Shown here one piece after another: positions 5,328-47,989 of a DNA stretch of 64,000 bases. The notes beneath the pieces were generated by a model that searched no databases, was not told the origin of the DNA, and saw nothing but the letters and a program-made list of their open reading frames with translations. The DNA is from Candidatus Tayloriibacteriota bacterium (lineage in GTDB: Bacteria > Patescibacteriota > Minisyncoccia > Phycocordibacterales > SIBU01), in assembly GCA_009695005.1 (NCBI GenBank), contig SIBU01000002.1, positions 7,274 to 71,273 of the forward strand, written 5' to 3'. Positions within the stretch are counted from its first letter, which is position 1, and the number at the start of each line of letters is the position of its first letter. Both the position numbers and the translations under genes were made by a program.

Positions 5328-6218
5328 TTATTTGTAACGAGATAAAAGATAATTTTCTAAGGATTTTTTCCAGGAAATTGTTTCTAAATTGTCAGAGTGC
5401 GCAAGGACAGTGCAAGTCGGACGTTTAACAGAGTGGGTTTTTTTGAATGAACATTTTTTTATGAGTGAAGTGTCGAGCTTAAGAATTTTTGCGACTTCCT
5501 TTGCAATGTCGTATTTAGTTACACCTTGTTCTTTTTTTGAGGCGCCGATTTGATAGATTTTTGTCGTATTAGGTTTTTTTTCAGATATAAGTTTAAGGGC
5601 TACATTGACTATATCTTTTGTCCAAACAGGAATATTGAATTGGTCATTTATCGCTTCGAGTAATTGATTTTGCTTAAGTGTTTTGACAACCATATCGATA
5701 AAAGTGTCACGACCGTCTCCATACAACCAACCGGCGCGTAAAATATAAAAATTCTCTGAAAAGTTTTTTCCGATTTGCTGAACGATTTGTTCCCCACCAC
5801 ATTTTGACCAACCGTAGACGTTTACAGGTGTAGGTAAATCATTTTCCACATACTTTTTCTTACTTCCACCGAAAATGTCGGAAGTACTGATTTGAATAAG
5901 TTTTGTGTCGGTAAGGTTGGATTCCTTGATTACCTCCGCGATGATCCCAGCTCCAATGGTATTGACGTTCCATGCGGTAAGCGGGTTTTTTTCACAGAAA
6001 TCTACATTTACCACAACCGCACAGTTTACTACGGCGTTGGGGCGATTTTCTGAAATTATTTTAGTGACTACTGTTTTGTCAGTTATGTCAGCGGATTCTT
6101 TGGAGTAAGCAATAATTTCCAAACCATTAGGTTTTCCAGATAAAGAAGCGAATTCTTTTCCAAGTAAACCATTTGAACCAAAGACAACAATTTTATTGTT
6201 AGTTTTTCTTGTAGTCAT
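5328..6218 (-). CDS. RmlD-like NAD(P)H-dependent NDP-4-keto-sugar reductase
   Basis: N-terminal Rossmann motif (KIVVFGSNGLLG). Has STSDIFGG (compare RmlD STDYVFDG) and YGWSK (YxxxK). ATG at 6216-6218. Confidence 0.5.
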   Translation of the reverse strand: MTTRKTNNKIVVFGSNGLLGKEFASLSGKPNGLEIIAYSKESADITDKTVVTKIISENRPNAVVNCAVVVNVDFCEKNPLTAWNVNTIGAGIIAEVIKESNLTDTKLIQISTSDIFGGSKKKYVENDLPTPVNVYGWSKCGGEQIVQQIGKNFSENFYILRAGWLYGDGRDTFIDMVVKTLKQNQLLEAINDQFNIPVWTKDIVNVALKLISEKKPNTTKIYQIGASKKEQGVTKYDIAKEVAKILKLDTSLIKKCSFKKTHSVKRPTCTVLAHSDNLETISWKKSLENYLLSRYK

Positions 6219-7389
6219 GGGAGAAGATGGATATTAGAATTTTTATATCTGAGTTCGACAGGTCGGGGTTATTTCCAAAATAAATTCCTTGTTCGTGGAT
6301 TAAAGAGGAAGTGGAATTTATAATTTGTGAACCTTTCATATATTTTTTAAAAAAAGGCTGTTTAGTCATGTCGCCACCAACTATTGGACGAATTTCCACT
6401 TTTTTATTGCAGGCTTCGATTATGGAGTCGCGGATTTCCTTTGTCTTGCAGATGATAGGGAAGGCGAAATTGGAAATAACATCTAAATGGTTAGATTGAA
6501 TTGGATAATATAAGTCAGTGCGTGTGTAGATTGCCTCAGCAAATTTTTTGAAATTACTTTCGCGTTTCTTGACGATAGTGTTTAAGTGGGAGAGTTGAGC
6601 GTTTCCAAGAAAGCCGGATATCTCGGTGGGCCTTAGGTTGTAACCTAGATCGTAAAATGTGTATTTTGCGTAAAGGGAGTCTGACACGCCAAATTCTTTT
6701 CTTATTTTTTTCTGTCCATCCTCTCCTAGGTTGCGGTCCCAGCCGTGGGCGCGGACAATTTTAAGCATTCGTGCTAACTTTGGATCGTCTGTGCAAACGG
6801 CGCCACCTTCAATTGTTGAGAGGTGGTGGGCAGCAAAAAAAGAAAAAGTGCTGGCAAGACCAAAGTTTCCAAGTTTTTTTCCTTTATAAACTGTACCAAG
6901 TGCCTCACAAGTATCCTCGAGAATCAAAATGTTCTTTTCTTTGCAGTAGGATTGAATTTTTTCCATATCGCCGCAAAAACCTAGAAGGTGAGTAATGAAA
7001 AGAACTCTGATAGGATTTTTTTCTGTTGCACTTTTGAAAGTTCTTGATGAAACGTTGAGGGTTTCGATTTCTACGTCAACAGGTATAGCCTTGAGACCAA
7101 GTTCAATAATCGGCATAACATTTGTCGCCCAAGTTAGTGCAGAAAAAGCTACTGAGTCTCCACGTTTTATAGTGCCAAGATTTAAAAGGGTTTGAAGAAT
7201 TGCTAGATTAGCAGAGCTTCCGCTGTTAAAAAAAACAGCATGCTTTCTGTTTTGCCATAATGCAAAAGAGTTTTCAAATTTTTCGCACTCCTTTCCGAAA
7301 CTTAGGGCGTCTGTTTTTTCTATGAAACGACAAAGTTTCTTTTTTGTGCCCTTTTCCTTGAAGAATACATTTTTGACAAGTGGTATCAT
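6199..7389 (-). CDS. PLP-dependent sugar 3-dehydratase, ColD/E1-like (DegT/DnrJ/EryC1 fold with His replacing catalytic Lys)
   Basis: DegT-family core (SGSSANLAIL ... FSFFAAHHLSTIEGGAV ... RAHGWDRN). The Schiff-base position is His (FFAAHH), as in ColD and E1 dehydratases. RAHGW is a ColD-type motif. ORF start at 7413 is TTG; the first ATG (MIPLVKN..) is at 7387-7389. Confidence 0.55.
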   Translation of the reverse strand: MIPLVKNVFFKEKGTKKKLCRFIEKTDALSFGKECEKFENSFALWQNRKHAVFFNSGSSANLAILQTLLNLGTIKRGDSVAFSALTWATNVMPIIELGLKAIPVDVEIETLNVSSRTFKSATEKNPIRVLFITHLLGFCGDMEKIQSYCKEKNILILEDTCEALGTVYKGKKLGNFGLASTFSFFAAHHLSTIEGGAVCTDDPKLARMLKIVRAHGWDRNLGEDGQKKIRKEFGVSDSLYAKYTFYDLGYNLRPTEISGFLGNAQLSHLNTIVKKRESNFKKFAEAIYTRTDLYYPIQSNHLDVISNFAFPIICKTKEIRDSIIEACNKKVEIRPIVGGDMTKQPFFKKYMKGSQIINSTSSLIHEQGIYFGNNPDLSNSDIKILISIFSHDYKKN

Positions 7390-7462
7390 ATTTTGGCTGA
7401 TTTTAGGGGTCAATTGTTGCCTAATGCTAATGGATGGTGGCCGTGATATTATACCTTACACT

Positions 7463-9638: not shown

Positions 9639-10613
9639 TTATTCGTAATTTATTGTTTCAACCCTTCCTGATTTAGATGATTTTATAATCGCATCTAGTA
9701 TGATTGCTTGGTCGAGGAAGGCTTTGTTGTATTGAAGGTAAGACTCGGGTTTAATTTTTGCATAATGGTTAAACATTTCTAGAAAAGAATCGGAAGATTC
9801 TACTGGAATATCTTTGGCAATGTTGCGCGATCTGTAAAGGATGTTATTAGTGTAATCTTTCGGCGCCGTAAACGCTCGGTCCAAAGACAAATAAAAACCA
9901 GAACCCCACAGGTCTAAATTATTTCTATATTCCAGGTCAAAACCGATATCACCTTGTAAAGTTTTGCTTTCTCCGAAATCAATTGTAACCGCGGCTAGCA
10001 TCGGGATACCACTCTGTTTATTGATACTTACCGAACAGTACACCTTTTTCGGTCTACTGTTGAAATAATACTGACCAACCGAAACTAAGTAGGGGCCTAA
10101 GTCAAAGAGACAGCCTCCTCCAAGTTTTTTGTCGTTGCGGTAGTTATTTTTTTCTAGTGGAGGAAATCCAAATTGAACACTAATTTTATTCAGTGAAGAA
10201 GTTTGAGATTCTAATATAATTTTCAACTTTTGATGCTGGCTGTGATAAAGGTAGGGGATTGACTCAAAAATCAATAATTGATTATTTGCCAATTGGTAGC
10301 ATTTTTTCGCTTCTTTTTTTGAGAGTACTGCAGGCTTATCCACGATAATATTTAATTTTCTTTTCAAGCAGTAATCAATCAATTTGTAGTGTGATGAATT
10401 TTGCGTGGAAATATAAACGGTGTCACAGCCACTTTTCTCGATCGCTCTCTCATAATTATCAAAAATAGGTAGGTCGGAGTTGATTTTCGAAGCCTTGGTT
10501 TGTGAAGCGATGCCTACTAAGGTCACTTTTTTATGATTTTTTATAGCAGGAATTATTGCCTTTTGGGCAATAGCTGAATATCCAATGAGTAGAATTTTAT
10601 TTTTTTTTATCAT
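9639..10613 (-). CDS. Gfo/Idh/MocA-family oxidoreductase, putative NDP-hexose 3-ketoreductase (KijD10/OleW type)
   Basis: N-terminal Rossmann (KILLIGYSAIAQKAIIPAI). GFO_IDH_MocA layout (..DTVYISTQNSSHYKLIDYCLKRKLNIIVDKP..). Its stop lies 6 bp from the 2,3-dehydratase gene start, which implies a coupled function. Confidence 0.5.
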   Translation of the reverse strand: MIKKNKILLIGYSAIAQKAIIPAIKNHKKVTLVGIASQTKASKINSDLPIFDNYERAIEKSGCDTVYISTQNSSHYKLIDYCLKRKLNIIVDKPAVLSKKEAKKCYQLANNQLLIFESIPYLYHSQHQKLKIILESQTSSLNKISVQFGFPPLEKNNYRNDKKLGGGCLFDLGPYLVSVGQYYFNSRPKKVYCSVSINKQSGIPMLAAVTIDFGESKTLQGDIGFDLEYRNNLDLWGSGFYLSLDRAFTAPKDYTNNILYRSRNIAKDIPVESSDSFLEMFNHYAKIKPESYLQYNKAFLDQAIILDAIIKSSKSGRVETINYE

Positions 10614-10619
10614 TTAGCG

Positions 10620-11348
10620 TCAAAGTGGACTGAGGATTGCCTTTACATATGGATTAACTATATTATCAACTAACATTAAAGCTTTTATTTCCGATAGAGA
10701 TAGCCAAATAAAATTATCATTTTCTTGCAGGGGAAGTTTAACTCCTGGCTTCAACAGATTTAATCTGCTCACGTTGCTTTTTTGCCAGAATCTTCCACCC
10801 TCCTCATTCTGACTGGCGGAATAAATAATTGTTGTATCGGGATGGTCAATATACTCGCTAAGAATAGGTTTGTGGCCCGAGTGATGTTGTCTCAGGTTAC
10901 TCATCGTTGCTTGGATAGAAGGTCCGAATTGAATTCTATTAATATTTCCACCCTCAAACTTGGCCTGCAATAAAAATTTAATCTCCCCTTTAATTTCTTG
11001 ACACAAGATAACCAAGTAGCCCCCTTCTTCCTGGACTATAATTGGCTGATCCCAACCAGAGACCTCGGAACTATTCGCATTTTGCACTCTTATTCCTTGA
11101 ACTGAAAAAAAATGACTGGTGCCTGCTTTGTGTCTGACCATCCCTTCTTTCTCTGAGTAAATCCAATCTTTCAATGAAGAAATTGGGAGTATCTGAATCG
11201 TCGATTGGTTTTTTGCTCTTTTTTTATGTAACCAATCCGTAGCGCGTTTAATATTCACTTTTGCTTTTTTCTTGTTAGAAAAAACTTTTGACCTTAGTTC
11301 ATTTAACCTTTTAGTATAAACTCGGGAGTTATTTTTAACCGTTTCCAT
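10620..11348 (-). CDS. NDP-hexose 2,3-dehydratase-like protein, single domain (half the size of EvaA/TylX3)
   Basis: Motifs HFFSVQGIRV, DQPIIVQEEGGYLVIL, LLQAKFEGGN, SQNEEGGRFW and FIWLSLSEI align (from memory) with the C-terminal Nudix-like repeat of 2,3-dehydratases. Only one repeat is present (242 aa). Confidence 0.5.
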   Translation of the reverse strand: METVKNNSRVYTKRLNELRSKVFSNKKKAKVNIKRATDWLHKKRAKNQSTIQILPISSLKDWIYSEKEGMVRHKAGTSHFFSVQGIRVQNANSSEVSGWDQPIIVQEEGGYLVILCQEIKGEIKFLLQAKFEGGNINRIQFGPSIQATMSNLRQHHSGHKPILSEYIDHPDTTIIYSASQNEEGGRFWQKSNVSRLNLLKPGVKLPLQENDNFIWLSLSEIKALMLVDNIVNPYVKAILSPL

Positions 11349-12760: not shown

Positions 12761-14122
12761 TTATTTCTTGATTTTCTTGGTTGTTACTGTTTTTTTATAT
12801 TCCTCCGCTCCCACAATTCGAGGAAAGGGAATGGGGATAATAAATTTACCTCCTTTGTCGCTAAAATCTTTGAGGTTGGCAATGATTTCCTTGGAAAAAT
12901 TCCAAGCTAGAAGTAGTGCATAATCCACCCCTTCGTTTATGAGTTCTACGTCGGAGACGACAGGAACGTGTCCACCGCCATGGCCACCCGGTGCGAAGCG
13001 GCCAATTTTCAAGCGCGCTCTTTCCGAAATAAGTTTGATGTGTCGGTTTGAAACTCCGATGTAATTTAAAAGAGTCATGCCTTTGGCAGGAGCCGAAACC
13101 ACCGCCAACTTTTTTCCTTGGTGTAGTAGTTTTTCAATAATCGTCATGAGTTCATCGCGATTTTTTCTAACACGTTTGGCAAAATTAAGCATGGTTTCCT
13201 TTTCGTGGAGTTTTGATTCTTTTTCAGCTTGAAGGAATTTTTGGACACTTGCATCAATCGAACGTGTACCGGTCCTTGCTATAAACACTCTGATGGAACC
13301 GCCATGAATATTGGTTTCTCTAATCATAAATATTTCCAAACCAAATTTGGCGAAGAAAGAAATGAGGGGTTTTATGGAAAGGTAAGACAGGTGTTCATGA
13401 TATACGGTATCGTATTCAAGATTTTCGACGAGGTGCTGAAAATACGGCGACTCAAAGATGAAAACCCCGTTCTTTTTAAGGATATATTTTACCGCGCGCA
13501 TTATTTCGTGCAGATCATCTATATGCGCGAACACGTTTGTGCCGACAATGACGGAAGCTGCGCCGACAAGTTTTTTGACTTTTTTGGCGCTTTCCATGCT
13601 GAAAAAATCGCAGATAGTCTTAATACCGTGTTCTTTGTTGGCTATTGCAACGATATTCGGAGCGGGATCAACCCCGATGGTTTTCATTCCCAGCTCTTTG
13701 AAAGATTTAAGAAGTGTGCCGACATTGCTTCCGATATCGACAATAACGTCATCTTTTTTTAATGAAAGGTCGGCGGTGATGGATTCCGCGAAACTGCCCC
13801 AGTGAGCCTGACCCGTTTTGGTCATCGATTGCTCGTAAGGATAGTCTAGTTGATATAGGACTTTCGGGTTGACTATATGACTTAACTGCGAGAGTCCGCA
13901 ATTTTCGCATAAAAGGACTCGTAGCGGATAAGAAATTTCCGGGATATCTAGTTCGTGCGCCGCTCTGAATTGGTCCGCGGGTGGAGTTAAACCCATGTCA
14001 AGATACAAGAAGAGTTTAGGGCTTTTGCACATTCGACAGACGGATGTTACACGATAGAGGTCTTTTACCGCTTCAGCCTGGATGTCTTTTTGCTTATGAT
14101 TTGTTTTTCGGTTGATAGTCAT
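12761..14122 (-). CDS. NDP-hexose C-methyltransferase, TylC3/NovU/EvaC family (Zn-ribbon + MTase + C-terminal domain)
   Basis: N-terminal CxxC...CxxC ribbon (CRMCKS...CENCGLSQL). Class I MTase motif (VIVDIGSNVGTL). Typical family length. ORF start at 14137 is TTG; the first ATG is at 14120-14122 (MTINRK..). Confidence 0.6.
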   Translation of the reverse strand: MTINRKTNHKQKDIQAEAVKDLYRVTSVCRMCKSPKLFLYLDMGLTPPADQFRAAHELDIPEISYPLRVLLCENCGLSQLSHIVNPKVLYQLDYPYEQSMTKTGQAHWGSFAESITADLSLKKDDVIVDIGSNVGTLLKSFKELGMKTIGVDPAPNIVAIANKEHGIKTICDFFSMESAKKVKKLVGAASVIVGTNVFAHIDDLHEIMRAVKYILKKNGVFIFESPYFQHLVENLEYDTVYHEHLSYLSIKPLISFFAKFGLEIFMIRETNIHGGSIRVFIARTGTRSIDASVQKFLQAEKESKLHEKETMLNFAKRVRKNRDELMTIIEKLLHQGKKLAVVSAPAKGMTLLNYIGVSNRHIKLISERARLKIGRFAPGGHGGGHVPVVSDVELINEGVDYALLLAWNFSKEIIANLKDFSDKGGKFIIPIPFPRIVGAEEYKKTVTTKKIKK

Positions 14123-14401
14123 ATAATAAGATGCCAAATTCTTGCATATTTTTTTCTGATTTGCAACATCTGTAATGTATCACGACCTTCGCAATACATG
14201 AAGTAAAATTATGTATGTTCCAGACACGATAAATTTCCAAATCTTGCTTTACTTTAGACTAGGGATGCAATAAAGACCTTTCCTAAAAGATTCCGACTCC
14301 AAAAATAAATATGAGTAAGGTGAAGGAAGTGGAAGAAAATAGCAGAAAAAATTTCGTGTAAAGAATCAGCTAGGAAAAGCCTGTTTAAAAAATTGTGAAA
14401 A

Positions 14402-15667: not shown

Positions 15668-15862
15668 ATTATGTTTCGATAATGGTAGCATGTATATATA
15701 GGGTTTTCCACATATACTGTAACAATCGAAAATTGCTGTAGTTACAAGACGATATGATGTGTGAAGCGGATTTCTCAGCGATTTAGCCCTACTTACTAAA
15801 TTAAATAGTTAATTATTTCATCAAGTAGGATATGAAAGAGTGCTGTGCTAGTATTGTTGACT

Positions 15863-16654
15863 ATGAATGCACAAATTGTATCGACCTTGGGTCCATCTAG
15901 CGGAAGCGAGAAAGTTTTGGTAGCAATGATTAAGGGAGGTATAAATATAGCTCGATTAAATTTTTCATGGGGTACTCATGAGGAGCATGGCTTACGTGTA
16001 GATAACCTTCGTAAGGCTGCCAAAAAACTTAAAAAGAGGATCCTAATCCTTCTGGATTTGTCTGGGCCAAGAGTGGCTGCTAAAGGTGGACATCATTTTG
16101 ACGGTGTAAGTAAAAAAATATTGACTAAAAAGGATATAAACGATCTTAATTTTGCTAAGAAATATGGTGTTGATTACGTTGCCCTTTCTTATGTCGGATG
16201 TGCGGCAGATGTGGTAGATCTTAAAGAGGAGTTGAAGAAAAAAGGCGTTACCGCAAAAGTAGTTGATAAAATTGAAAGAAAGAAGGCTTTCGATAATTTG
16301 GATGAAATTTTGAAAGAAGCTGACGCCATTATGATTGCCCGCGGAGATTTGGGGAATGAAATTCCTTTGGAAAAAATTCCTTACGTTCAAAGTATTATTA
16401 TTGCCAGAGCCAAGGAGGCGGGGAAGCCGGTGATTACTGCAACAGAAATGATGATATCAATGGTTGAAAAATCAAGACCTTCACGTGCGGATGTTTCGGA
16501 TGTTACAGTTGCAATTTTAACCGGAACAGATGCTGTTATGCTTTCCGAGGAGACAGCTATCGGTAAGTATCCTGTTGAAGTTGTGCAGATGATGAAAAGA
16601 ATAGCCGTAGAAGCTTCTCGTCAGCCGTTCGCTAAACCTCTCAATTCTTTTTAG
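15863..16654 (+). CDS. Pyruvate kinase-like protein, A-domain (TIM barrel) only; lacks B (lid) and C (allosteric) domains
   Basis: PK signatures: IVSTLGPSS, INIARLNFSWGTHEEH, LLDLSGP, MIARGDLGNEIPLEKIPYVQSIII, PVITATEMMISMV, PSRADVSDVTVAILTGTDAVMLSEETAIGKYPVEVV. Only ~17 aa lie between DLSGP and the second barrel half. The protein ends at ~264 aa. ORF start at 15845 is GTG; ATG at 15863 gives the canonical MNAQIVSTLGP. Confidence 0.6.
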   Translation: MNAQIVSTLGPSSGSEKVLVAMIKGGINIARLNFSWGTHEEHGLRVDNLRKAAKKLKKRILILLDLSGPRVAAKGGHHFDGVSKKILTKKDINDLNFAKKYGVDYVALSYVGCAADVVDLKEELKKKGVTAKVVDKIERKKAFDNLDEILKEADAIMIARGDLGNEIPLEKIPYVQSIIIARAKEAGKPVITATEMMISMVEKSRPSRADVSDVTVAILTGTDAVMLSEETAIGKYPVEVVQMMKRIAVEASRQPFAKPLNSF

Positions 16655-16799: not shown

Positions 16800-17351
16800 A
16801 TGACCGAATGGACATTTGATGAAATTGAAGAAGGTAAAAGAACCCTAGCACGAATCAAGGAAAGAGGATTTCCCGTTCCACTCGATATTATTTTTGGCTT
16901 AACTGAGTCATTTTTCACTATCGTCGTTGAGTGCGCCGTGGTTAAGCGGTTTGACCACGGACCTACTGGGGTCGAGTGGCAGACACTCTGGATTCGCCGA
17001 CCCTCGGATGATCGTTATTACCCCAATAGGTGGCATATGCCTGGGAAAATGCAATTACCAGGGATCAGCATTCCGAAAATGATTGAGAGGACATTAGCTC
17101 GTGAAGTAGGCGTTGCTGTCGACGGAAGTCTGGTTCCCAAAATTGGTTTTTTTGAGGATATTGGCGGTCGTCGAGGGCACGAACATCAGCACCAGTACTT
17201 TGTCACTGTGCCGCAAGACTCCGAAGTAAAAACGGAAAAGGGCGAGTCTCATGTTTGGTGCAATGTGTTTGGGGCTCCGCCTCAGCCAACCCTTCAACCC
17301 CATCTGAAACTTCTTGAAAACCTTCGAGATTTCCTGAGAAAGAAGATTTAA
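16800..17351 (+). CDS. Hypothetical protein with degenerate Nudix-like segment; GC-rich relative to flanks
   Basis: ATG at 16800 preceded by SD AGGAAAGG (16785-16792). Followed by a hairpin terminator. The segment RWHMPGKMQLPGISIPKMIERTLAREVGV resembles a Nudix box, but the catalytic Glu residues are not conserved. Local GC is visibly higher than neighbours. Confidence 0.5.
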   Translation: MTEWTFDEIEEGKRTLARIKERGFPVPLDIIFGLTESFFTIVVECAVVKRFDHGPTGVEWQTLWIRRPSDDRYYPNRWHMPGKMQLPGISIPKMIERTLAREVGVAVDGSLVPKIGFFEDIGGRRGHEHQHQYFVTVPQDSEVKTEKGESHVWCNVFGAPPQPTLQPHLKLLENLRDFLRKKI

Positions 17352-17406: not shown

Positions 17407-18639
17407 CTAATATTTTTTAAGAAAATCAGTAAATATTTTTTTCATATAATCAAGCATTTCCGGAGTTAATCCTTGATGAGCACCTACTGCGAAGGTATCC
17501 TTCATTATTTTGTCGGCATTTTTGAGTTCCCCAACAACTCTTCGTGGTAAGTTTTTGTAAGCTGGATGTCTTAAGATGTTTCCCGCAAAGAAGAGTCTTG
17601 TTTGGATGTTTTGGCTTTCCAGGTATTTTACTATTGTAAAGCGGTCAAAGGGCGCCCCGTCTCTAATGGTAAGAGGGAATGCCAGCCAGCTTGATTTAGC
17701 ATTACTGTGTTCCTCCGGTAAAATAAAATATTTCTCATATTCCTTAAAAAACCTTTTTAAGGAATCAAAGTTATGTTTACGAATTTTAATTACATTCGGC
17801 AATCTTTTTAGTTGTTCTAGTCCGAAGGCGAACATCATTTCGACAGGCTTTAGATTAAAACCCATATGAGTATAAGTAAATTTCCTGTCATAATGAATAC
17901 CTGTAATTTTTGTGGTAAAACGCTTTTCTAGGCTTTCATCATCGTTAAGAGCTGCTCTACCCCATTCACGATAAGAATAAGCCGATTCGTATAATTTTTT
18001 GTCTGAAACCGCAACGATACCTCCGCCTCCTCCTGCCGTGATGTGATGTGAGGCGTAGAAACTTGACGTGGTTACATCACTGTAGGTTCCTGCCGGCTTT
18101 CCGTTGAATGTTCCAGCCATAGTGTCGCAACTATCATCTATGAGATAAAGTTTGTGCTTGTTGCAAAAAGCACGAAGTTTTACCATGTCATTTAAATTAC
18201 CAAAAGCGTGCGGAATTAATATCGCTTTAGTTTTTGGAGAAATCATTTTAGGAAGATTGTTGAGATCTAGGTTGTAAGTGCCAAGTTCAGAATCACCAAC
18301 TACAGGTACTAAATTATTGATATATATCGTGCTGTAAGTGGTAGAGAAAGTGCACGCAGGAGTGATTACCTCACTACCTGGAGGGAGATTTAATATTTTG
18401 AGGGCGAGTAGGTTTGCCGATGATCCTGAATTGACTACTATGCCGTATTTTTTTCCAAAAAGCTTGGAGGTTTTTTTTTCGAATTCCTCCACAATTGGTC
18501 CCATTCCAAGCCAGCCACGTTTGAGACAGGCTACTACTGCCTCTATTTCCTCTTCACCGTACACTGTTTGAGCATAGTAAACTTTATCTTTTCCTGGGGT
18601 AAACTTTCCTGACTTATTGTGTATTCCGTAATATTTCAT
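17407..18639 (-). CDS. PLP-dependent NDP-4-keto-6-deoxyhexose 3-dehydratase, E1/SpnQ-like (His in place of Lys)
   Basis: DegT fold (VVNSGSSANLLAL ... SFYASHHITAGGGGG ... YREWGR). The HH motif is at the Lys position. The E1-type FRDWGR-like motif is present. ATG at 18637-18639. Confidence 0.55.
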   Translation of the reverse strand: MKYYGIHNKSGKFTPGKDKVYYAQTVYGEEEIEAVVACLKRGWLGMGPIVEEFEKKTSKLFGKKYGIVVNSGSSANLLALKILNLPPGSEVITPACTFSTTYSTIYINNLVPVVGDSELGTYNLDLNNLPKMISPKTKAILIPHAFGNLNDMVKLRAFCNKHKLYLIDDSCDTMAGTFNGKPAGTYSDVTTSSFYASHHITAGGGGGIVAVSDKKLYESAYSYREWGRAALNDDESLEKRFTTKITGIHYDRKFTYTHMGFNLKPVEMMFAFGLEQLKRLPNVIKIRKHNFDSLKRFFKEYEKYFILPEEHSNAKSSWLAFPLTIRDGAPFDRFTIVKYLESQNIQTRLFFAGNILRHPAYKNLPRRVVGELKNADKIMKDTFAVGAHQGLTPEMLDYMKKIFTDFLKKY

Positions 18640-19564
18640 AGCGTTTGTAGTGGTTGATAATTTTTTTCAGGCCCTCAGTATAATCTATTTGCGCGTGCCA
18701 ACCAAGTTTATTTATTTTTGAGGTATTGGCTACAAAGTTGGTGATTCCCACTGCATTATGAAAGGCAGGTGGCGGTATCGGAGTTATTTTTGATTTATTG
18801 CCGGTATGTTCCAGTATGTAATTAATCATATCCTTAAATTGCACTGGTTTCCCATAGCCAATTAGATAAGTTTCGTTGACCGCTTTATTTTCTAAGAAGT
18901 GGAGAGCATCAATTACATCATCAATATAGATGTAATCTCGCTTAAAATTTCCACCATGATAGACGTTTAAATTTTCACCTCGGATAGCTCTCATTACTGC
19001 AAAATTGAGCCATGCTTTTTTCGGATCATCAAAAGTTTCACTAGCGCCGTACACGTTTGTAAATCGGGCAATGAGGTAGGGAATTTGATATAGGCGAGAG
19101 TAGAGTTTTAGAATTTCTTCGGTTGCTAATTTGGTAATTCCATATAATCCCAAAGGATCAATTTTACTCTCCTCGGTTATCGGTTTTTTTGTATTATCGT
19201 ATTCGTTGCCGTAAACTTGAATTGTTGCCGGATAAATTATTTTCGGTTTTTTTGTTAAATCTTTGCATAATTCTAAAATTCTCAACGTTCCCTTTATATT
19301 TGTATCAACGTCGACAGAAGTGTCGGTCAGGACGTGATAATTGTGTGTTGTGCTCGCACAGTGGTAAATGCAGTCAACTCCTTCGATGTCATTTTTTGTT
19401 ATGGCCGATATATCCTTTATTAAAATTTTGACATTTTTGTTTTTAATACGATTTTTATCTTTTGAAGATCTTGAAATTACGGTGATGGAACCCTTAAGTG
19501 AGTTTGCTATGGCTGATCCAATAAAACCTAAACCGCCAGTTACTAGGTATTTCTTTTTTTTCAT
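18614..19564 (-). CDS. NAD-dependent epimerase/dehydratase (extended SDR)
   Basis: YLVTGGLGFIGSAI Rossmann. YGITK (YxxxK). 26-bp overlap with the downstream E1-like gene. Confidence 0.6.
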   Translation of the reverse strand: MKKKKYLVTGGLGFIGSAIANSLKGSITVISRSSKDKNRIKNKNVKILIKDISAITKNDIEGVDCIYHCASTTHNYHVLTDTSVDVDTNIKGTLRILELCKDLTKKPKIIYPATIQVYGNEYDNTKKPITEESKIDPLGLYGITKLATEEILKLYSRLYQIPYLIARFTNVYGASETFDDPKKAWLNFAVMRAIRGENLNVYHGGNFKRDYIYIDDVIDALHFLENKAVNETYLIGYGKPVQFKDMINYILEHTGNKSKITPIPPPAFHNAVGITNFVANTSKINKLGWHAQIDYTEGLKKIINHYKRYEILRNTQ

Positions 19565-19566
19565 GA

Positions 19567-20556
19567 CTATTTATTTTTATAAAAAGACAGTGTAATCAAT
19601 AAACCTTCGTCAAAAGAAACTGCTGGTTTCCAGCCGAGCTCTACTTTTATTTTTGTACAGTCCAGTGAGTAACGAAAATCATGACCTGGGCGATCTGGTA
19701 CGTACATAATATAGGAGTTGTCGAGTTTGTGGAAAGCAAGTAATTTTTTTGTAAGTTCGAGATTGCTTAGTTCTGTGTTACCTGCAATGTTATAAACTTC
19801 ACCACTTTTCCCACTCTGAAATACCAAATCAATTGCTCTAATATTGTCCTCAACGAACAACCAGTCACGTATCTGGGCGCCCTCTCCATACAACGGAACT
19901 TTTTTGCCTCTTGAAAGATTGGTGGTAAAAAGAGGTATAAGTTTGCTTTTGTCTTGATGTGGACCGTAATTGTTGGAAGATCTGGTAATAATAATATCTA
20001 GACCAAAAGTATGGTGGTATGAATGTACAAGACGATCTGCTGCTGCTTTTGACGCACTGTAAGGATTGCGTGGCATAAGAGGGGAGTCTTCGGTAAAGAC
20101 CCCTTTTTTTGTTGCAAGTGCCCCGTATACTTCGTCGGTTGAGATAAAAAGAAATCTTTTTGTTTTGAATTCTCTCGCTAAAATAAGTAAATTGTGAGTT
20201 CCCATGACGTTTGTTTCTATAAACAGACTAGGGTTTTTTATACTTAAATCTACATGACTTTCCGCTGCGAAATGAATTATGTCAGTTGGCTGATATTTTT
20301 TAAAAATTTTACGTAAATTTGAAATGTTTCGTATGTCCGCTTTTTCAAAAATGTAATTTATTTCCTTATCAATTTTAATGTTATCGATGTTTGCCGCGTA
20401 GGTTAGGCTATCAATATTGATAAACAGTGTGTCGGGATAAGCGACTACAAATTTATTCAAATAGTGACTTCCGATGAAGCCGGCACCGCCAGTTACTACA
20501 ATTCTTTTTTTGTAGGAAGGGGGTGATTTTTTTGAATTACTTCTTTTTGTTGTCAT
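19567..20556 (-). CDS. rmlB: dTDP-glucose 4,6-dehydratase
   Basis: IVVTGGAGFIGSHY, HFAAESHVDLSI, TNVMGTHNLL, STDEVYG and YSASKAAAD are all RmlB hallmarks. ORF-track start is TTG (20601); the first ATG at 20556 gives MTTKRS... Confidence 0.7.
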   Translation of the reverse strand: MTTKRSNSKKSPPSYKKRIVVTGGAGFIGSHYLNKFVVAYPDTLFINIDSLTYAANIDNIKIDKEINYIFEKADIRNISNLRKIFKKYQPTDIIHFAAESHVDLSIKNPSLFIETNVMGTHNLLILAREFKTKRFLFISTDEVYGALATKKGVFTEDSPLMPRNPYSASKAAADRLVHSYHHTFGLDIIITRSSNNYGPHQDKSKLIPLFTTNLSRGKKVPLYGEGAQIRDWLFVEDNIRAIDLVFQSGKSGEVYNIAGNTELSNLELTKKLLAFHKLDNSYIMYVPDRPGHDFRYSLDCTKIKVELGWKPAVSFDEGLLITLSFYKNK

Positions 20557-21283
20557 TATTTTTATTGCGAATAAAATTTGCAGTTTCAAGCAAACTGTCA
20601 AACGTGCCTATATCGAACCATTCTTTTTTTAAAAAGATACCATGAAGTTTGCCATCCTTGATATATTGCTTGTTTATGTCGGTAATTTCGTACTCACCTC
20701 TCTCTGATGCTTTGAGACTTAAACATTTCTTAAAAACTGTACTGTCATACATATAAACACCGGTCACAGCGTAATTGGTCTTTGGTTTGGTTGGTTTTTC
20801 ATCAATATCTAGAATCTTGCTGTTTTGTCCAAGTGTAGCAATGCCGAATCTTTCAGGGTCCGCTACTTCTTTTAGAAACACCGTCGCTCCACTTTTGAAT
20901 TTTTTTATGTGTGGTGTTAGGTCGTCTTCAAAAATATTGTCGCCAAGATACAGCACACAGTTATCATTACCGATGTAATCTTTGGCGATCCATAAGCCGT
21001 AAGCAATGCCATTGGGCTGGTTTTGGATACCGTAGACAATTTGTATTTGCTTGCCGGTGCGTTTTGACATGAAATCAGCCCCTGAACCGAGAAGTTTAAC
21101 CATAGATTCGATTGCTTCAGGTGAAGTGACAATCATGATTCGGTCGATTCCAGCGTCTACAAGTTTTTTGACCGCGTAATAGATTACAGGCTTATCATAT
21201 AGAGCAAGTAGATGTTTGTTGGTAGAAACGGTTAAAGGACGAAGTCTGGTTCCACCACCTCCGGCGAGTATAATCCCTTTCAT
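20537..21283 (-). CDS. rmlA: Glucose-1-phosphate thymidylyltransferase-like sugar nucleotidyltransferase
   Basis: MKGIILAGGGGTRLRPLTVSTNKHLLALYDKPVIYY matches the RmlA N-terminus (MKGIILAGGSGTRLYP...IYDKPMIYY). ORF-track start is TTG (21337); the canonical ATG (MKGII) at 21283 is used. Confidence 0.6.
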   Translation of the reverse strand: MKGIILAGGGGTRLRPLTVSTNKHLLALYDKPVIYYAVKKLVDAGIDRIMIVTSPEAIESMVKLLGSGADFMSKRTGKQIQIVYGIQNQPNGIAYGLWIAKDYIGNDNCVLYLGDNIFEDDLTPHIKKFKSGATVFLKEVADPERFGIATLGQNSKILDIDEKPTKPKTNYAVTGVYMYDSTVFKKCLSLKASERGEYEITDINKQYIKDGKLHGIFLKKEWFDIGTFDSLLETANFIRNKNNDNKKK

Positions 21284-21468
21284 TTGCTTGTTATTTGACA
21301 TGAGGGTAATCATAACGACATTTGAAAACTGTGTCAAAGAAAAGGTCCTTGATTTGGGCGGTAATTATTCTCTTGTTTTAGCGGTTTAATTAAGGGCTGA
21401 AACCCTTGGTCCATTTCACCTAAACCACTCTATTTACACTCCTAAGCGGTACCGCTATAATTCGAATT

Positions 21469-22635
21469 ATGCAATTACGACAAAAAATAAAGAATATTCC
21501 AATACTCGGCGATCTGATCATGATTTTTGTTCGACTCCCGAGTTTTGTAAAGGGGTCTTTTCTTACTTGGAAATACTATTCTAAACGTCATGCTTCTGCG
21601 GATTTTTTTGGTACTTACATTATTACAGATGTTGCCCCGATTGCGACTCAATATGAGAAAATTGTTAGCCAACTTGGTGGCGACATACTAAAAAATAATC
21701 CAGAAGGTGATCATGTTGAAATAACACCGGTGAGTTTCAAAAACAGGGGACTTTTTTCAATTATGAATGAGGTGTTGGATGAAATTTCCATGAATAATGA
21801 GAAGTCATTCCAGATACTTTTACAAAATACGATGTATAACAATTCTCCGGATGAGAATATGTGGAACTATTATTTTGAACCAATAGATAATAGTGCTGAT
21901 AAACGATTCCCATATAATCTTTTCTTCAACACGAGACCATTTTTCAATAGTCTCTTTCCGCACCGACCAAAGCTTGTCTCACTGTTTAATAAAGTTTTTA
22001 AAAGTCGGATCAAAATAAAATCCGAGATACTCGAGAAAGCAGAGCTGTTTGTTCGTACCAATTTTGCAAATAAAAAAATTGTTGGCGTGTACTATCGAGG
22101 TACTAATATTATGATATCGATTGATTCGGTTTCCCAAATGTACAGAAAGGCACTCCATGAGGAATATTTTATAGAGATAGATTCATTATTGGCGAACGGA
22201 TATGACGCTGTTTTTCTTTCAACCGACGATGAGAAAATTTTTCCAAAATTTAAAGAACGCTACGGTTCAAGGTTGCTATATTACGCTGAAAATAAAAACG
22301 GTTTGAACACAATAATATTTGTGGACTATACACAAAAACCCCCAAAAATTCCGAAATGCTTTACCCCAAGAGAGTTTGGAGAGGGTGCTTTAATCAATAG
22401 CATCCTTTTAGCTAAATGTGATTTTTTCGTTTCCGGCCTTTCAAATGTTTCTGCGGTTATTAAATATTTTAATCCTAAGATTCCATTTAAAAATCTTGAT
22501 ATTAAATATACTAATAAATACATGCAAGATATTGTTAGTATCGGAATGTTTCGAGGACTGGGCAATTTCGGGGAGGGAATTCGAACTTTAAAGTTTTTGA
22601 GAGAAGAAAGTAAAAAGATAAAAAATGAAAGATAA
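21469..22635 (+). CDS. Hypothetical protein, possibly fucosyltransferase-superfamily GT-B (GT11/GT23/GT65-like motifs)
   Basis: VGVYYRGTN resembles the GT11 HIRRGD block. FFVSGLSNVSAV resembles the GT11 NSTMSWW block. No confident family match. ATG at 21469. Confidence 0.3.
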   Translation: MQLRQKIKNIPILGDLIMIFVRLPSFVKGSFLTWKYYSKRHASADFFGTYIITDVAPIATQYEKIVSQLGGDILKNNPEGDHVEITPVSFKNRGLFSIMNEVLDEISMNNEKSFQILLQNTMYNNSPDENMWNYYFEPIDNSADKRFPYNLFFNTRPFFNSLFPHRPKLVSLFNKVFKSRIKIKSEILEKAELFVRTNFANKKIVGVYYRGTNIMISIDSVSQMYRKALHEEYFIEIDSLLANGYDAVFLSTDDEKIFPKFKERYGSRLLYYAENKNGLNTIIFVDYTQKPPKIPKCFTPREFGEGALINSILLAKCDFFVSGLSNVSAVIKYFNPKIPFKNLDIKYTNKYMQDIVSIGMFRGLGNFGEGIRTLKFLREESKKIKNER

Positions 22636-30012: not shown

Positions 30013-31113
30013 TTATTTGAACTTAAACTTATTGATTATTTCAATCACACTTTCAATTTCCTTGTCAGTCAGCTCTGGAAATATCGGTAAGGAGATGATT
30101 TTCTCGGAATCGTTTTCAGTGTTGAGTAAGGATCCATTTTTGTAACCAAGAAATTCGTAGGCTTTTTGAAGATGGACAGGGAAGGGGTAATGAATGCCAA
30201 AACCTATACTGTTCTTTTTTAGATGATCAATGAAGGATTCTCGTTTTGAGATCTTTACAACGAATAGATGGAAAACGTGAAGATTTCCGTTTCGGATTTT
30301 AGGTAATTCAATCTCAGGATTGTCTATTTTCGAGAGATATTGGTGTGCAATGAAGGCGCGTCTTTCGTTGTTCGAATCAAGTGTTGGTAGTTTTGTTCTG
30401 AGAATAGCGGCTTGAATTTCGTCAAGTCTACTATTGAAGCCCTCTATATTTGCAAAATAGGTTTCTTGCATACCATACACTCTAAGTTGTCTGCAGGTAG
30501 TGGCGTATTCTTTCGAATTAGTAAGAATCATCCCTCCATCGCCGTAAGCGCCAAGGTTTTTTGTGGGATAGAAACTGAAACAAGAAAGATCACCAAAACT
30601 TCCAGCTTTTTTGTCTCCCGCTTTCGATCCAGTGGCTTGAGCACAGTCTTCAACCACTTTAAGGCTGTGTTTGTTGGCGATTTTCATTATCTCGACCATA
30701 TCAGCTGTTTGTCCGTAAAGGTGAACGGGTAACAAAACTTTTGCTTTTCTTGTGATTGCGGCTTCAATTTTTCTTACGTCCATTAAAAAATATTCATCCG
30801 TATCGACAAATACAGGTGTTGCTCCTAGCTCACGAATAGCACTGATTGTTGGGGTCGCTGTGTTTGAGACTGTGATTACTTCGTCTCCGGTTCCTACCCC
30901 CAGGGTCTTTAAGGCTATTTTTATAGCATCAGTTCCGGAGTTAACTCCTATTCCATGTGTGGTGCCGATATACGAGGAGAATTCCTTTTCAAACTTATTT
31001 ACTTCTTCATCAAGCACAAATTTACCAGAGTTTAAGACTCTTTTTATGGCAGCATTCGTTTCTGCTTCGGTTTTTTTTACCAATCGTGTTGCGTCAAAAA
31101 AAGGGATTATCAT
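30013..31113 (-). CDS. DegT/DnrJ/EryC1-family PLP sugar aminotransferase (FdtB/QdtB-like)
   Basis: [15 protein letters not shown] (Lys retained) and [12 protein letters not shown]. Adjacent to an FdtA-like isomerase. Confidence 0.7.
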
Positions 31114-36103: not shown

Positions 36104-38011
36104 TTAAAAATTGTGTTTTTGTAAACGTTTAAGTGCAGTGATGAATCCTTCGCCGTGATCACGATGACCCATCCAGATTTCCGGTGAAATGGTGACATCG
36201 ACTTTTAAAATTTCGGGCATGAGGATGTTCCATGGAACATCACCTTCACCCACCTGAAGACCTTCTCCGTCGGTACCGGCTCCATCTGATAGATGAATAT
36301 GTTTTATCAAAGGCTTCAATGTTTCAAAATATTTAATTGGATCTTTTTTCGCAAGTGTACAGTAAAGCTGGGCATGGCTACTGTCGTAACAGAGATTAAA
36401 ATTATGTTTCTTAGCGAACTCATATATTTCATCAGCATCGGTGAAAGTGTTTGAAAACCATGAACCTCCTTTGTACCACGGTAGAGGGGCTTGATTTTCC
36501 AGCAATAATTCAATGTCCGTTCGATCTATTTTTTCTAGGGCTTTGCCGAGACGAGTATACATTTTCGCACGTTCGTCTTTGGAAACAAAATCATCATAAC
36601 TCATGCCACCTGGATGAAGAACCACCTTGGCCTTTGTGGGGGTTTTTCCAAAATATTTTCTTATGGATCGAACAGTGTTTAGTAGGTCGTTGATGTTCTT
36701 GATGGAAGCATTCACAACAGAAGAGTCTGTGGAAGAAAAATCTAGAAGTTGGTCACCCCAAAGTTCAGGCGCGTGCACGATGAGTTCAAGTTCTGGATGG
36801 TTTTTGAAAGCCATCTGATTTTTTAGGTCGTGAGAACTGAAATGAAATTCAACAAATGAAGGTTTGAGTCCCGCAATCATTTCCTCGAAATCATGAGGTC
36901 GGACAATGAGCCCCCATTTTCTGCTAGATGAGAAATTGCGATTCAGCCTTTTTTTACCGAGGTCTTCTTCTGTAAAATAGTCATCCATTGGTATGTCGCG
37001 TTCGGCCTTTAAGCCAATCAATTTGTAAAGTTTCTGAGGAGAAAGGCCTTTGGCGGGACTTTTAGAAATAATCATTTCGCGTGTCAAAATTTCTCCTTTT
37101 TTTATTGGAACTTTAGCCACCAAACTTTTTCCTAGAATTTTTCTGTTGATAAGTTCTCCTGCTGTGATAAATTTTTTGTCACTTCTAAGCGCTTCTTCTA
37201 TTGCTCGTATATCTCTGACAAGTTTTTTTATACCAGTTGGTTCAAGTGAAATAGCATGGTCAGGTCCAGTCATGGTTCTGTCCAAAGTGATATGTCTTTC
37301 GATAACTTTGGCACCGAGCGGAATGGCCGCAGAACTTATGGCTATGCCATGTTCGTGGCCAGAGTAGCCAACCGGAACATTGAATTTTTCTTGAAGTGTT
37401 TTTATGAATCGTAAGTTTACGTCCTTCGGGGCAGTAGGGTAGGTGCTGTTGCAGTGAAGAAGAATGTATTCTGCATTAAGCTTGTTTAGAAAATCCACAG
37501 TGTCGCCGATTTCTTCCAAAGAGGACATTCCGGTGGAAACTATCATGGGCTTTTTCTTTGAAGCTATGTATTCAAGAAGTTCAAAATTTACCATGTCAGC
37601 AGAGGCGACTTTGTAGGCGGGCACATTTAGTTTTTCCAATGCGTTAACACTTGGAATATCCCAAGGTGTACACAAAAACATGATACCTTGATCTTTTGCG
37701 TACTTTGCAAGTTCTTTGAAATTTTCATGTGACAGTTCCGATTCTCGGATGAGAGACAAGATGTATTGAGTTGCGATATCTTCATTTTTTGTATTGTTCC
37801 ATGCCTTGTCGGTATAGAGGGTTTTGAAATCTCGCATTTGAAATTTCACGGCGTCGGCCTTGGCCTCAACAGCAACGTCGACAAGTTTTTTTGCCAGTTC
37901 TATTCTGCCGTTGTGGTTGATTCCGGCTTCGGCAATTATGAAAGTTGGCTGGTCTTCTCCGACCAATCTTTCGCCAATTTTAACTGTCTTTTTGTTGTTT
38001 GGTTTTTTCAT
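36104..38011 (-). CDS. Nonulosonic/sialic-acid synthase (NeuB/PseI/LegI family) + SAF domain fused to C-terminal xylose-isomerase-like TIM barrel
   Basis: N-terminus IIAEAGINHNGRIELAKKLVDVAVEAKADAVKFQ (NeuB). SAF region (KVPIKKGEILTREMI). The C-terminal ~270 aa carry HAPE...VLHPGG...LENQ...HLSDG, reminiscent of AP-endonuclease-2/xylose-isomerase-like barrels. Total 635 aa. Confidence 0.6.
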   Translation of the reverse strand: MKKPNNKKTVKIGERLVGEDQPTFIIAEAGINHNGRIELAKKLVDVAVEAKADAVKFQMRDFKTLYTDKAWNNTKNEDIATQYILSLIRESELSHENFKELAKYAKDQGIMFLCTPWDIPSVNALEKLNVPAYKVASADMVNFELLEYIASKKKPMIVSTGMSSLEEIGDTVDFLNKLNAEYILLHCNSTYPTAPKDVNLRFIKTLQEKFNVPVGYSGHEHGIAISSAAIPLGAKVIERHITLDRTMTGPDHAISLEPTGIKKLVRDIRAIEEALRSDKKFITAGELINRKILGKSLVAKVPIKKGEILTREMIISKSPAKGLSPQKLYKLIGLKAERDIPMDDYFTEEDLGKKRLNRNFSSSRKWGLIVRPHDFEEMIAGLKPSFVEFHFSSHDLKNQMAFKNHPELELIVHAPELWGDQLLDFSSTDSSVVNASIKNINDLLNTVRSIRKYFGKTPTKAKVVLHPGGMSYDDFVSKDERAKMYTRLGKALEKIDRTDIELLLENQAPLPWYKGGSWFSNTFTDADEIYEFAKKHNFNLCYDSSHAQLYCTLAKKDPIKYFETLKPLIKHIHLSDGAGTDGEGLQVGEGDVPWNILMPEILKVDVTISPEIWMGHRDHGEGFITALKRLQKHNF

Positions 38012-45954: not shown

Positions 45955-46754
45955 TTGAGTTCTTTTAGGATTATCTCGAGTTCTTCCTTGTTCGGTGATT
46001 TGTGGTGCCATGCAGGATTGTGTTCCATGGTTTTTGAACCGAAGCCTTTAATCGTTTCTGCGATGATCGCGATTGGTTTTTTGTCTGATTGCGATGATAA
46101 GGCCTTTAGAATTTTTTTGTGATTATGTCCATTGATTTTCAAACACTTCCATCCGAAAGCTTCAAATTTTAGACTTAGATCACCAACAGAGAGAGCTCTG
46201 TCGGTGGAATGATTGTAGTCAACTATGCAGATCAGGTTTGTTAGTTTGTGGTGGGTAGCAAGCAAGGCCGATTCCCAGACGGTACCTTCGTTTGCTTCGC
46301 CGTCTCCTATAAGAGTGAAAACTTTTGCTTTAGAGTTTGAAATTTTCAATCCTAGGGCCACACCTATCGCCATCGGAAGTCCGTGTCCCAAAGATCCTGT
46401 TGAGGCTTCTACTCCAGGGATTTTGTTTCTGTCTGGGTGTCCCCCCAAAATACTGTCGAATTTTGCGAATCGCTCTAGTTCGCTTTTTTCAAAAAAACCT
46501 TTTTCCGCAAGAACAGCATAAAGGGCAAGAGAAGCGTGCCCCTTACTTAATATAAATATATCTCTTTGCGGGTCTTTAGGATTAAGAGGGTTAAATCTTA
46601 AAACTAGGTCGTAAAGTACCCACAAAATATCAAGAATTGAAAAGGCACTTGCAACATGCCCTTCGCCGGCATTGTGTGCTGCTAAAACGATTGAACTTTT
46701 TAAGGAGTTAATTTTTTTAATGGGGTAGTTCATTTGTTTGGATTTGCCATTCAT
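45951..46754 (-). CDS. Transketolase, N-terminal (TPP-binding) subunit
   Basis: GHVASAFSILDILWVLY and GSLGHGLPMAIGVAL are TPP-binding motifs. ~267 aa split-subunit size. Confidence 0.65.
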   Translation of the reverse strand: MNGKSKQMNYPIKKINSLKSSIVLAAHNAGEGHVASAFSILDILWVLYDLVLRFNPLNPKDPQRDIFILSKGHASLALYAVLAEKGFFEKSELERFAKFDSILGGHPDRNKIPGVEASTGSLGHGLPMAIGVALGLKISNSKAKVFTLIGDGEANEGTVWESALLATHHKLTNLICIVDYNHSTDRALSVGDLSLKFEAFGWKCLKINGHNHKKILKALSSQSDKKPIAIIAETIKGFGSKTMEHNPAWHHKSPNKEELEIILKELK

Positions 46755-47985: not shown

Positions 47986-47989
47986 AGTT

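Follow-up and report, generated by a model that had tools for sequence, protein, structure and literature searches.

How does a sugar 3-dehydratase work when it keeps the scaffold of E1, which the field regards as a radical enzyme dependent on an iron–sulfur (Fe-S) cluster and its reductase E3, and yet has neither the cluster site nor the reductase? This question is raised by an operon at positions 17407-21337 in a 64,000-nucleotide stretch of DNA from a Candidatus Tayloriibacteriota bacterium (contig SIBU01000002.1, positions 7,274 to 71,273), hereafter the window. The last gene of the operon encodes a relative of E1, and the same combination of traits recurs throughout a large clade of proteins. 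The answer that we put forward, holding it at roughly even chances, is that the operon converts glucose-1-phosphate to a nucleoside diphosphate (NDP)-linked 3,6-dideoxyhexose, most likely carried on deoxythymidine diphosphate (dTDP), by way of an Fe-S-independent dehydratase that works like ColD on an E1-type scaffold, together with a short-chain dehydrogenase/reductase (SDR) encoded beside it.

The operon comprises four consecutive open reading frames (ORFs) on the minus strand, arranged head-to-tail, with coordinates exactly as given in a first-pass annotation made from the letters alone, which had described a DegT-family protein with His in place of the cofactor Lys, grouped with an SDR, RmlB and an RmlA-like enzyme. 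From head to tail, the features are as follows:

21309-21337, minus strand: promoter-like site TTGACA-17 nt-TATGAT at the operon head, 11 of 12 consensus matches
20537-21337, minus strand: RmlA-like nucleotidyltransferase, 266 amino acids
19567-20601, minus strand: RmlB (dTDP-glucose 4,6-dehydratase), 344 amino acids
18614-19564, minus strand: extended SDR, 316 amino acids
17407-18639, minus strand: E1-like, pyridoxamine 5′-phosphate (PMP)-dependent NDP-hexose 3-dehydratase without an Fe-S site, very probably so assigned, 410 amino acids

The four ORFs abut or overlap, with 26 nt shared by the SDR and E1-like ORFs and a gap of 2 nt between RmlB and the SDR. The promoter-like site, which is the strongest match in the region, sits in a divergent gap of 132 nt that precedes a plus-strand ORF at 21469; it is a consensus match only, in a region whose 17 promoter-like sites are not significantly enriched over the 13.3 ± 3.3 found in shuffled sequences. 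Because the site covers 21337-21309, the true start of rmlA is probably an ATG inside the ORF, at 21283 (MKGIILAGG...) or 21301; rmlB, too, probably starts at an internal ATG, at 20556. An imperfect hairpin lies 3′ of the E1-like stop codon. With abutting or overlapping genes, a promoter-like site at the head and a hairpin at the 3′ end, the unit therefore reads as a single operon, and we predict that the four genes form one transcription unit. The divergent ORF across the gap (21469-22635, plus strand, 388 amino acids) matches nothing in Pfam, and none of the 160 fetched loci holds a homologue of it.

What, then, is the E1-like protein? Its 410-residue translation, which contains SFYASHHITAGGGGG and YREWGR, matches the DegT_DnrJ_EryC1 family at 271.6 bits and the RfbH model NF011936 at 411.9 bits, just under the equivalog cut-off of 423. 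Its best solved relatives are E1 (3bcx, 311.7 bits) and ColD (184.6 bits), against at most 135 bits for true transaminases; PDB entry 9wvy, a “putative NDP-4-keto-6-deoxyglucose-3-dehydratase”, matches at 131 bits. An AlphaFold model built from 70 homologues (predicted local distance difference test, pLDDT, 93.9) aligns by Foldseek with E1 3bcx at a template modelling (TM) score of 0.91, a root-mean-square deviation of 2.8, an E value of 6e-45 and 40% identity, and with ColD at a TM score of ~0.86 and 29-30% identity. In the residue alignment, S193-F-Y-A-S-H198 of the window protein falls on S215-F-Y-P-A-H220 of E1, which places His198, preceded by Ser197, at the position of the lysine that binds pyridoxal 5′-phosphate (PLP); the Lys that the transaminase motif SF(Y/H)xxK has five residues after the conserved Ser is absent, and the His stands there instead. 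The first-pass annotation had named a catalytic Lys on proper alignment, or clustering with transaminases, as grounds for abandoning its assignment, and neither was seen: bit scores, fold and a neighbour-joining tree agree. The NCBI name of the protein is “aminotransferase class I/II-fold PLP-dependent enzyme”; a transaminase identity was rejected on account of the His at the cofactor position and of the clustering with dehydratases in sequence, fold and tree. The protein is thus very probably a sugar C3-dehydratase.

The alignment is equally clear about the Fe-S ligands. E1 reportedly holds its [2Fe-2S] cluster through the motif C193-X57-C251-X1-C253-X7-C261, which Agnihotri et al. are said to have described in 2004. 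The E1 loop WGRDCYCAPGCDNTCKKRF contains C251, C253 and C261; in its place the window protein has WGR, a gap of three residues and then AALNDDESLEKRF, so that a 3-residue deletion together with Ala, Asp and Leu occupies the ligand region and all three cysteines are gone; taken one by one, position 251 falls in the deletion, 253 is Ala and 261 is Leu. The earlier remark that no clear Cys motif was visible is hence borne out by direct comparison with E1. The sole ligand of the four to be kept is C171, the equivalent of E1 C193, and a Cys also occurs at this position in ColD, which is free of Fe-S. The His is present and the Cys triad missing in all 120 of the closest homologues (52-71% identity), most of which come from Patescibacteria (such as Buchananbacteria, Harrisonbacteria, Yanofskybacteria, Moranbacteria and Doudnabacteria). 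Across a 70-sequence alignment of close homologues the catalytic His is invariant, C96 and C171 are the only conserved cysteines, and no other conserved four-Cys set is found; His144 and His388 are also conserved in the clade. In all likelihood, therefore, the E1-like protein carries no Fe-S cluster.

How far does this Cys-less type extend? When 1.84 billion cluster representatives (50% identity) were scanned exhaustively with HMMER, 1103 proteins matched at E ≤ 1e-30, and the best 150 of these representatives were typed by their cysteines. Among these 150, 71 have the His with none or one of the Cys, 64 combine it with at least three (motif WGRDCwcxPGxxNTCGKRF), and 9 are ColD-like. In a neighbour-joining tree, drawn without bootstrap support, the ColD-like proteins branch first, the Fe-S type makes up one large group, and the Cys-less proteins, including that of the window, make up another. 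When each GTDB species was represented by a single genome, the search yielded 80 loci, mainly from Patescibacteria; among the others are DPANN archaea (Woesearchaeota), a haloarchaeon in culture, Halorhabdus salina (locus L080), and a metagenome-assembled genome (MAG) of Legionella. The residue before the catalytic His sorts along similar lines: it is Ser in 112 of the 120 close homologues, in 47 of 70 Cys-less representatives and in 10 of 10 ColD-like proteins, and Ala in 55 of 65 Fe-S types. Natural fusions give a further view of the company that these enzymes keep. Among the Cys-less proteins, P0126 is joined to an RmlB-like 4,6-dehydratase (236 bits to the window RmlB), P0182 to both RmlC and RmlD, and P0122 and P0127 to an SDR; Fe-S-type proteins, too, carry RmlD-like or SDR domains as fusions. 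The fused homologues span 640-870 amino acids (P0122, P0126, P0127, P0164 and P0182 being Cys-less, and P0131, P0137, P0141 and P0165 of the Fe-S type), and in P0158 (643 amino acids) about 270 C-terminal residues have no Pfam match.

If the cluster site is gone, is the reductase gone as well? Neither a motif regular expression nor phmmer recovered an E3-like reductase among the ORFs of at least 50 amino acids in the 64-kilobase (kb) window, and none of its 226 ORFs of this size carries a plant-type or 4Fe-4S ferredoxin motif. The positive control was a set of 80 metagenomic loci with close relatives of Yersinia E1, one of which supplied an E3-like ORF (Fer2 motif plus FNR motifs) as phmmer query against all ORFs. 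An E3-like ORF is present in 22 of the 51 classic E1 control loci of at least 8 kb, as opposed to none of the 76 Cys-less E1-like loci of at least 8 kb, a contrast that covers gene neighbourhoods only and, with control loci from other phyla, is perhaps partly taxonomic. Nor does a flavin or Fe-S reductase appear as a fusion domain, the fused domains being all SDR, RmlD, RmlC or 4,6-dehydratase. With the motif, phmmer and ferredoxin searches all empty, the classic pairing of E1 with E3 was rejected for this locus, and the first-pass remark that no obvious E3 partner is present now extends to the related loci. Both absences, that of the cluster and that of the reductase, are conserved across a large clade and are not the quirk of a single gene. 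One further ORF, at 16800-17351, was considered as a new redox partner and rejected, being a divergent Nudix protein that resembles guanosine diphosphate (GDP)-mannose mannosyl hydrolase.

The upstream genes bear on which nucleotide carries the sugar. RmlB scores 388 bits against TIGR01181, above the equivalog cut-off of 365.1, and only 107.8 bits against TIGR02622, the model for the cytidine diphosphate (CDP)-glucose dehydratase; its translation carries TDEVYG, YSASK (the YxxxK motif) and, for NAD+, an Asp after beta-2. The RmlA-like protein matches NTP_transferase at 194 bits and has RmlA proteins for all of its 21 best PDB matches, headed by the short Bacillus form 3hl3 (218 bits); it reaches 33 bits only with the CDP-type cytidylyltransferase model TIGR02623, and its 244.8 bits with TIGR01207 fall below the equivalog cut-off of 360.65. 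With RmlB passing its equivalog model and the CDP models scoring poorly, the upstream nucleotide type is most likely dTDP.

The third gene is harder to name. The SDR matches the Epimerase family and no equivalog; it has YGITK (YxxxK), TIQVYG where dehydratases have TDE, and VISRSSK after beta-2, that is, Arg/Ser and no acidic residue. We take this, as is usual for SDRs, to be the mark of an NADPH-using reductase rather than of an NAD+-retaining epimerase or dehydratase, which makes the SDR a candidate NADPH-dependent C4-ketoreductase for the 3-deoxy-4-keto product. From the homology search of the SDR neither an exact function nor the stereochemistry of the sugar can be derived. Its orthologues keep the same company elsewhere: one (62% identity) sits directly upstream of a 69%-identical E1-like gene in locus L001, and others adjoin the E1-like gene in L005, L034 and L040. 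More broadly, the E1-like gene directly adjoins an ORF of the SDR family in 23 of 77 loci, and 58 of the 77 have such an ORF no more than 5 kb away, counts that amount to moderate evidence only, as such clusters are rich in SDRs.

Taken together, these assignments suggest a route. The RmlA-like enzyme would turn glucose-1-phosphate into dTDP-glucose, and RmlB would convert this into dTDP-4-keto-6-deoxyglucose, whose direct use as substrate by the E1-like protein we consider somewhat likely. The E1-like protein would bind PMP and form a Schiff base at C4, whereupon His198 would take the C4′ proton from PMP and drive the loss of the 3-OH. Because there is no [2Fe-2S] site and no E3-type reductase, the resulting delta-3,4-glucoseen-PMP adduct would not undergo a single-electron reduction of the E1 kind; it would be hydrolysed as in ColD, with an enamine/imine released to give the 3-deoxy-4-ketosugar and ammonia, and PMP would be re-formed from PLP with L-glutamate. 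The co-translated, NADPH-type SDR would then reduce C4, and the final sugar would be a 3,6-dideoxyhexose. The precedent is documented: in ColD the adduct yields PLP and an enamine, tautomerisation and loss of ammonia give the 3-deoxy-4-ketosugar, and PMP is recovered from L-glutamate (PMC8987622), and the same PLP/glutamate route has been described for the C3-dehydratases of Campylobacter jejuni HS:5 and HS:11 (PMC10440746). The Ser-His pair that the window protein shares with ColD, together with the absence of Fe-S ligands and E3, therefore favours ColD-like turnover on an E1-like scaffold; that this turnover is driven by glutamate is, by analogy with ColD, a proposition that could fall either way.

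Several observations weigh against this proposal. The overall sequence of the E1-like protein is much nearer E1 than ColD, and E1 does not use glutamate (2022 review, PMC8987622). The RmlA-like score under its curated cut-off makes the nucleotide uncertain, the tree comes without bootstrap values, and the E3 contrast has its possible taxonomic component. It is also conceivable on sequence that an unlinked general reductase serves the enzyme, or that a non-canonical cluster is held through C96, C171, His144 and His388. This would amount to the redox mechanism of E1 and SpnQ, with the cluster bound by unusual ligands or with electrons delivered directly, from a general ferredoxin/flavodoxin reductase encoded elsewhere; it would agree with E1 being the closest relative, with the invariance of C171 and the conservation of the other three residues, and with the visible genome being limited to 64 kb, and SpnQ reportedly draws on general cellular reductases with no dedicated E3 (PMC8987622). 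Yet all 120 of the closest homologues have lost three of the four ligands and carry a deletion in the ligand loop, the one Cys that stays is found in Fe-S-free ColD too, and neither the window nor the 76 related loci offer an E3, nor the window a ferredoxin, so that we regard this mechanism as very improbable. A PMP/PLP-dependent sugar C4-aminotransferase, or an enzyme resembling a 3,4-ketoisomerase or epimerase, with a 4-amino-4,6-dideoxy or 6-deoxy sugar as product, has the NCBI protein name in its favour and the report that SpnQ, given PLP and glutamate without reductase, transaminates (PMC8987622). It is hard to reconcile with the strict conservation of the His across the clade, where DegT transaminases keep Lys, with the presence of an ordinary Lys-bearing DegT protein at 30013-31113, and with the tightly coupled or fused ketoreductase, for which a 4-amino product would have no need; we think it very improbable. 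About as small a chance attaches to a third mechanistic class, in which the coupled or fused NAD(P)H-dependent SDR would itself reduce the PMP-glucoseen by direct hydride transfer, in place of the single-electron reduction of E1 and SpnQ or the hydrolysis of ColD. If true, PMP would be regenerated without glutamate or Fe-S proteins, a good fit to bacteria of the candidate phyla radiation (CPR) and DPANN archaea with their minimal, redox-poor metabolism.

A more serious competitor arises from genes elsewhere in the window, where a 2,3-dehydratase, a 3-ketoreductase and another His-for-Lys DegT protein had been anticipated by the first-pass annotation and are indeed found:

6199-7413, minus strand: ColD-type His-for-Lys DegT protein (ColD 2gms 184.6 bits, E1 161.7 bits)
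9639-10613, minus strand: GFO/IDH/MocA oxidoreductase, 3-ketoreductase candidate
10620-11348, minus strand: single-domain NDP-hexose 2,3-dehydratase, 242 amino acids

The 2,3-dehydratase and the 3-ketoreductase candidate, lying 6-8 kb from the operon, count against the proposed route in that the enzyme may in fact act on a 2,6-dideoxy sugar. The E1-like enzyme would then act like SpnQ and remove the 3-OH from dTDP-4-keto-2,6-dideoxyglucose, Fe-S-free, with the SDR reducing C4 to give a 2,3,6-trideoxyhexose of the amicetose or rhodinose type, and the oxidoreductase and 2,3-dehydratase would form a possible feeder route. The upstream enzymes are of the dTDP type, as for SpnQ, and two Woesearchaeota MAG loci (L065 and L074) pack a Cys-less E1-like gene tightly into one operon with RmlA, a 2,3-dehydratase of 251 or 253 amino acids, a GFO oxidoreductase and RmlB, a combination that follows the SpnO/SpnN/SpnQ logic; L065 has a divergent SDR next door as well, and all six gene types also occur in the window, within 12 kb and on one strand. 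The 2,3-dehydratase is itself unusual in having one Hexose_dehydrat domain (242-253 amino acids) and no second half encoded nearby, a short form that recurs at L065:12072-12827 and L074:2463-3224. Characterised 2,3-dehydratases such as EvaA have two Hexose_dehydrat domains in about 470 amino acids. On the other side of the balance, a 2,3-dehydratase homologue is present in just 2 of 77 Cys-less loci, and the fusions to 4,6-dehydratase and to RmlC/RmlD suggest that the 4-keto-6-deoxy sugar is used directly. In the window, six genes separate the pair from the operon, among them an RmlD-like reductase, a C-methyltransferase, a glycosyltransferase and the plus-strand pyruvate-kinase-barrel and Nudix ORFs, and the ColD-type DegT protein, outside this stretch, could serve the 2,6-dideoxy branch instead. 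We therefore see SpnQ-like action as credible and still unlikely. The annotation had left the product as a 3,6-dideoxy or a 2,3,6-trideoxy sugar; the fusions favour the former, and the two archaeal operons keep the latter alive. The Fe-S-independent, ColD-like conversion of dTDP-4-keto-6-deoxyglucose to a 3,6-dideoxyhexose remains the reading that we prefer.

The window holds further genes of related kinds. The ColD-type DegT gene at 6199-7413, with the motifs SFFAAHH and RAHGWDRNL and no Fe-S cysteines, overlaps an RmlD-like reductase gene (5328-6218, minus strand), one of two RmlD-like reductases in the window, which thus carries two different candidates for an Fe-S-free 3-dehydratase. The ColD-type protein could serve another deoxysugar branch, or a GDP-mannose branch together with the GDP-mannose 4,6-dehydratase listed here with two further genes:

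12761-14137, minus strand: TylC3-type sugar C-methyltransferase (Methyltransf_13, _23 and _14 domains)
16800-17351, plus strand: divergent Nudix protein, 183 amino acids (Pfam NUDIX E = 0.0011)
49787-50890, minus strand: GDP-mannose 4,6-dehydratase, GMD (GDP_Man_Dehyd 501 bits)

GMD shares the segment 48819-50890 (minus strand) with an SDR resembling GDP-L-fucose synthase, whose 483.7 bits fall just under the cut-off of 500. Six loci (L004, L015, L022, L060, L071 and L073, of which L004 and L015 are close relatives) have homologues of the C-methyltransferase alongside Cys-less E1-like genes, and a C-methylated deoxysugar is a possible product.

The Nudix ORF is convergent with the E1-like gene, their stop codons 55 nt apart, and so stands outside the transcript as an accessory. 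Its family, searched with a profile from the window protein, is present in 24 of 77 Cys-less loci, in 10 of them no more than 300 nt from the E1-like gene, versus one of 80 classic E1 controls; L003, L004 and L015 have two to five copies each. The profile matches PDB entries 1rya and 2i8t at E ~2e-5, and the degenerate Nudix box (R-V-x-x-x-E-L-G) resembles that of GDP-mannose mannosyl hydrolase. By these likenesses the protein is probably an NDP-sugar hydrolase of this type. The arrangement parallels that of gmm in colitose clusters.

There are also curious genes in and around the glycan cluster. An ORF within it (15845-16654, plus strand, 269 amino acids) consists solely of a pyruvate-kinase barrel domain (261 bits), and homologues of this barrel appear in ORFs of about 330-930 amino acids near E1-like genes in L005, L063, L065 and L067. 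Farther along, a 635-residue protein (36104-38011, minus strand) fuses NeuB, the sialic or nonulosonic acid synthase, and SAF to an AP_endonuc_2/xylose-isomerase-like TIM barrel, and has genes for a methyltransferase and for GT10/GT11 fucosyltransferase-like proteins on its flanks. A split transketolase (minus strand; N-terminal part at 45951-46754, Pyr/C-terminal part at 45073-46011), accompanied by an SDR (44054-45073), follows immediately on the Wzm/Wzt-type ABC transporter genes (46717-48808) on their downstream side; this could be a module for two-carbon branched-chain sugars, or plain transketolase.

What could be gained from the Cys-less clade? It bears on whether ColD chemistry can run on an E1 scaffold and on the evolutionary tie between two known mechanisms, as well as on the surface deoxysugars of uncultured, host-dependent cells. 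On the practical side, the E1/E3 pair is hard to reconstitute in vitro, with failure reported (PMC7851689), and a biocatalyst free of Fe-S that accepts glucose-configured NDP-sugars would, if confirmed, be useful for making 3,6-dideoxyhexoses. In our literature searches, with some key subscription papers outside reach, no work on an E1-clade protein free of Fe-S came up, and those on CPR deoxysugars and on PDB entry 9wvy returned nothing relevant.

How does the window enzyme compare with the systems already known? The only characterised sugar 3-dehydratases are E1, ColD and SpnQ (2022 review, PMC8987622). E1 (AscC/DdhC/RfbH, the CDP-6-deoxy-L-threo-D-glycero-4-hexulose 3-dehydrase of Yersinia and Salmonella, 3bcx) is the best match in sequence and fold, and shares with the window protein the His in place of the PLP lysine, D194, Y217 and the C193 equivalent, F345 of E1 being Leu here; the operon content, a nucleotidyltransferase, a 4,6-dehydratase and a 4-reductase, is also as for E1. 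Unlike E1, the window protein lacks C251, C253 and C261, has a 3-residue loop deletion, carries Ser and not Ala before the catalytic His and has no E3 gene nearby, and its upstream enzymes are RmlA and RmlB (dTDP) in place of RfbF and RfbG (CDP). Measured as a member of the E1/RfbH family, it has the His and the fold, and falls short in cut-off score, Fe-S ligands, E3 partner and CDP context.

SpnQ, the dTDP-4-keto-2,6-dideoxyglucose 3-dehydratase of spinosyn and forosamine biosynthesis, is like the window system in its dTDP-type upstream enzymes, in having no dedicated E3, and in the 2,3-dehydratase and 3-ketoreductase of the window region, which the two archaeal relatives combine in the same operon. 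SpnQ reportedly carries a [2Fe-2S] motif and needs a ferredoxin/flavodoxin reductase (PMC8987622); the window protein has no such motif and is encoded in a surface-glycan rather than a natural-product cluster. The first-pass label of “E1/SpnQ-like” accordingly stands for the E1 match and gives way on the Fe-S ligands, on the reductase partner and, for E1, on the CDP context, the protein belonging to a separate Cys-less clade, and its mechanism is therefore probably closer to that of ColD.

ColD (WbdK, the GDP-4-keto-6-deoxy-D-mannose 3-dehydratase) and the GDP-heptose C3-dehydratases of C. jejuni HS:5 and HS:11 do without Fe-S and without a reductase, as the window protein does. It further resembles the ColD type in its Ser-His pair, which is S187/H188 in ColD, where the double mutant has been deposited as 3gr9, and in being paired with an SDR that would finish the sugar. 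It differs from ColD in an identity of only 29-30%, in its place in another clade of the tree and in having YREWGR instead of RAHGW, and its context is dTDP-glucose as against the GDP-mannose or GDP-heptose of the ColD types. The chemistry is thus probably known, being ColD-like, whereas the literature within our reach describes neither the union of an E1 scaffold with this context nor how large the clade is and how widely it ranges phylogenetically. Most likely, the Cys-less clade represents a recombination of known chemistries.

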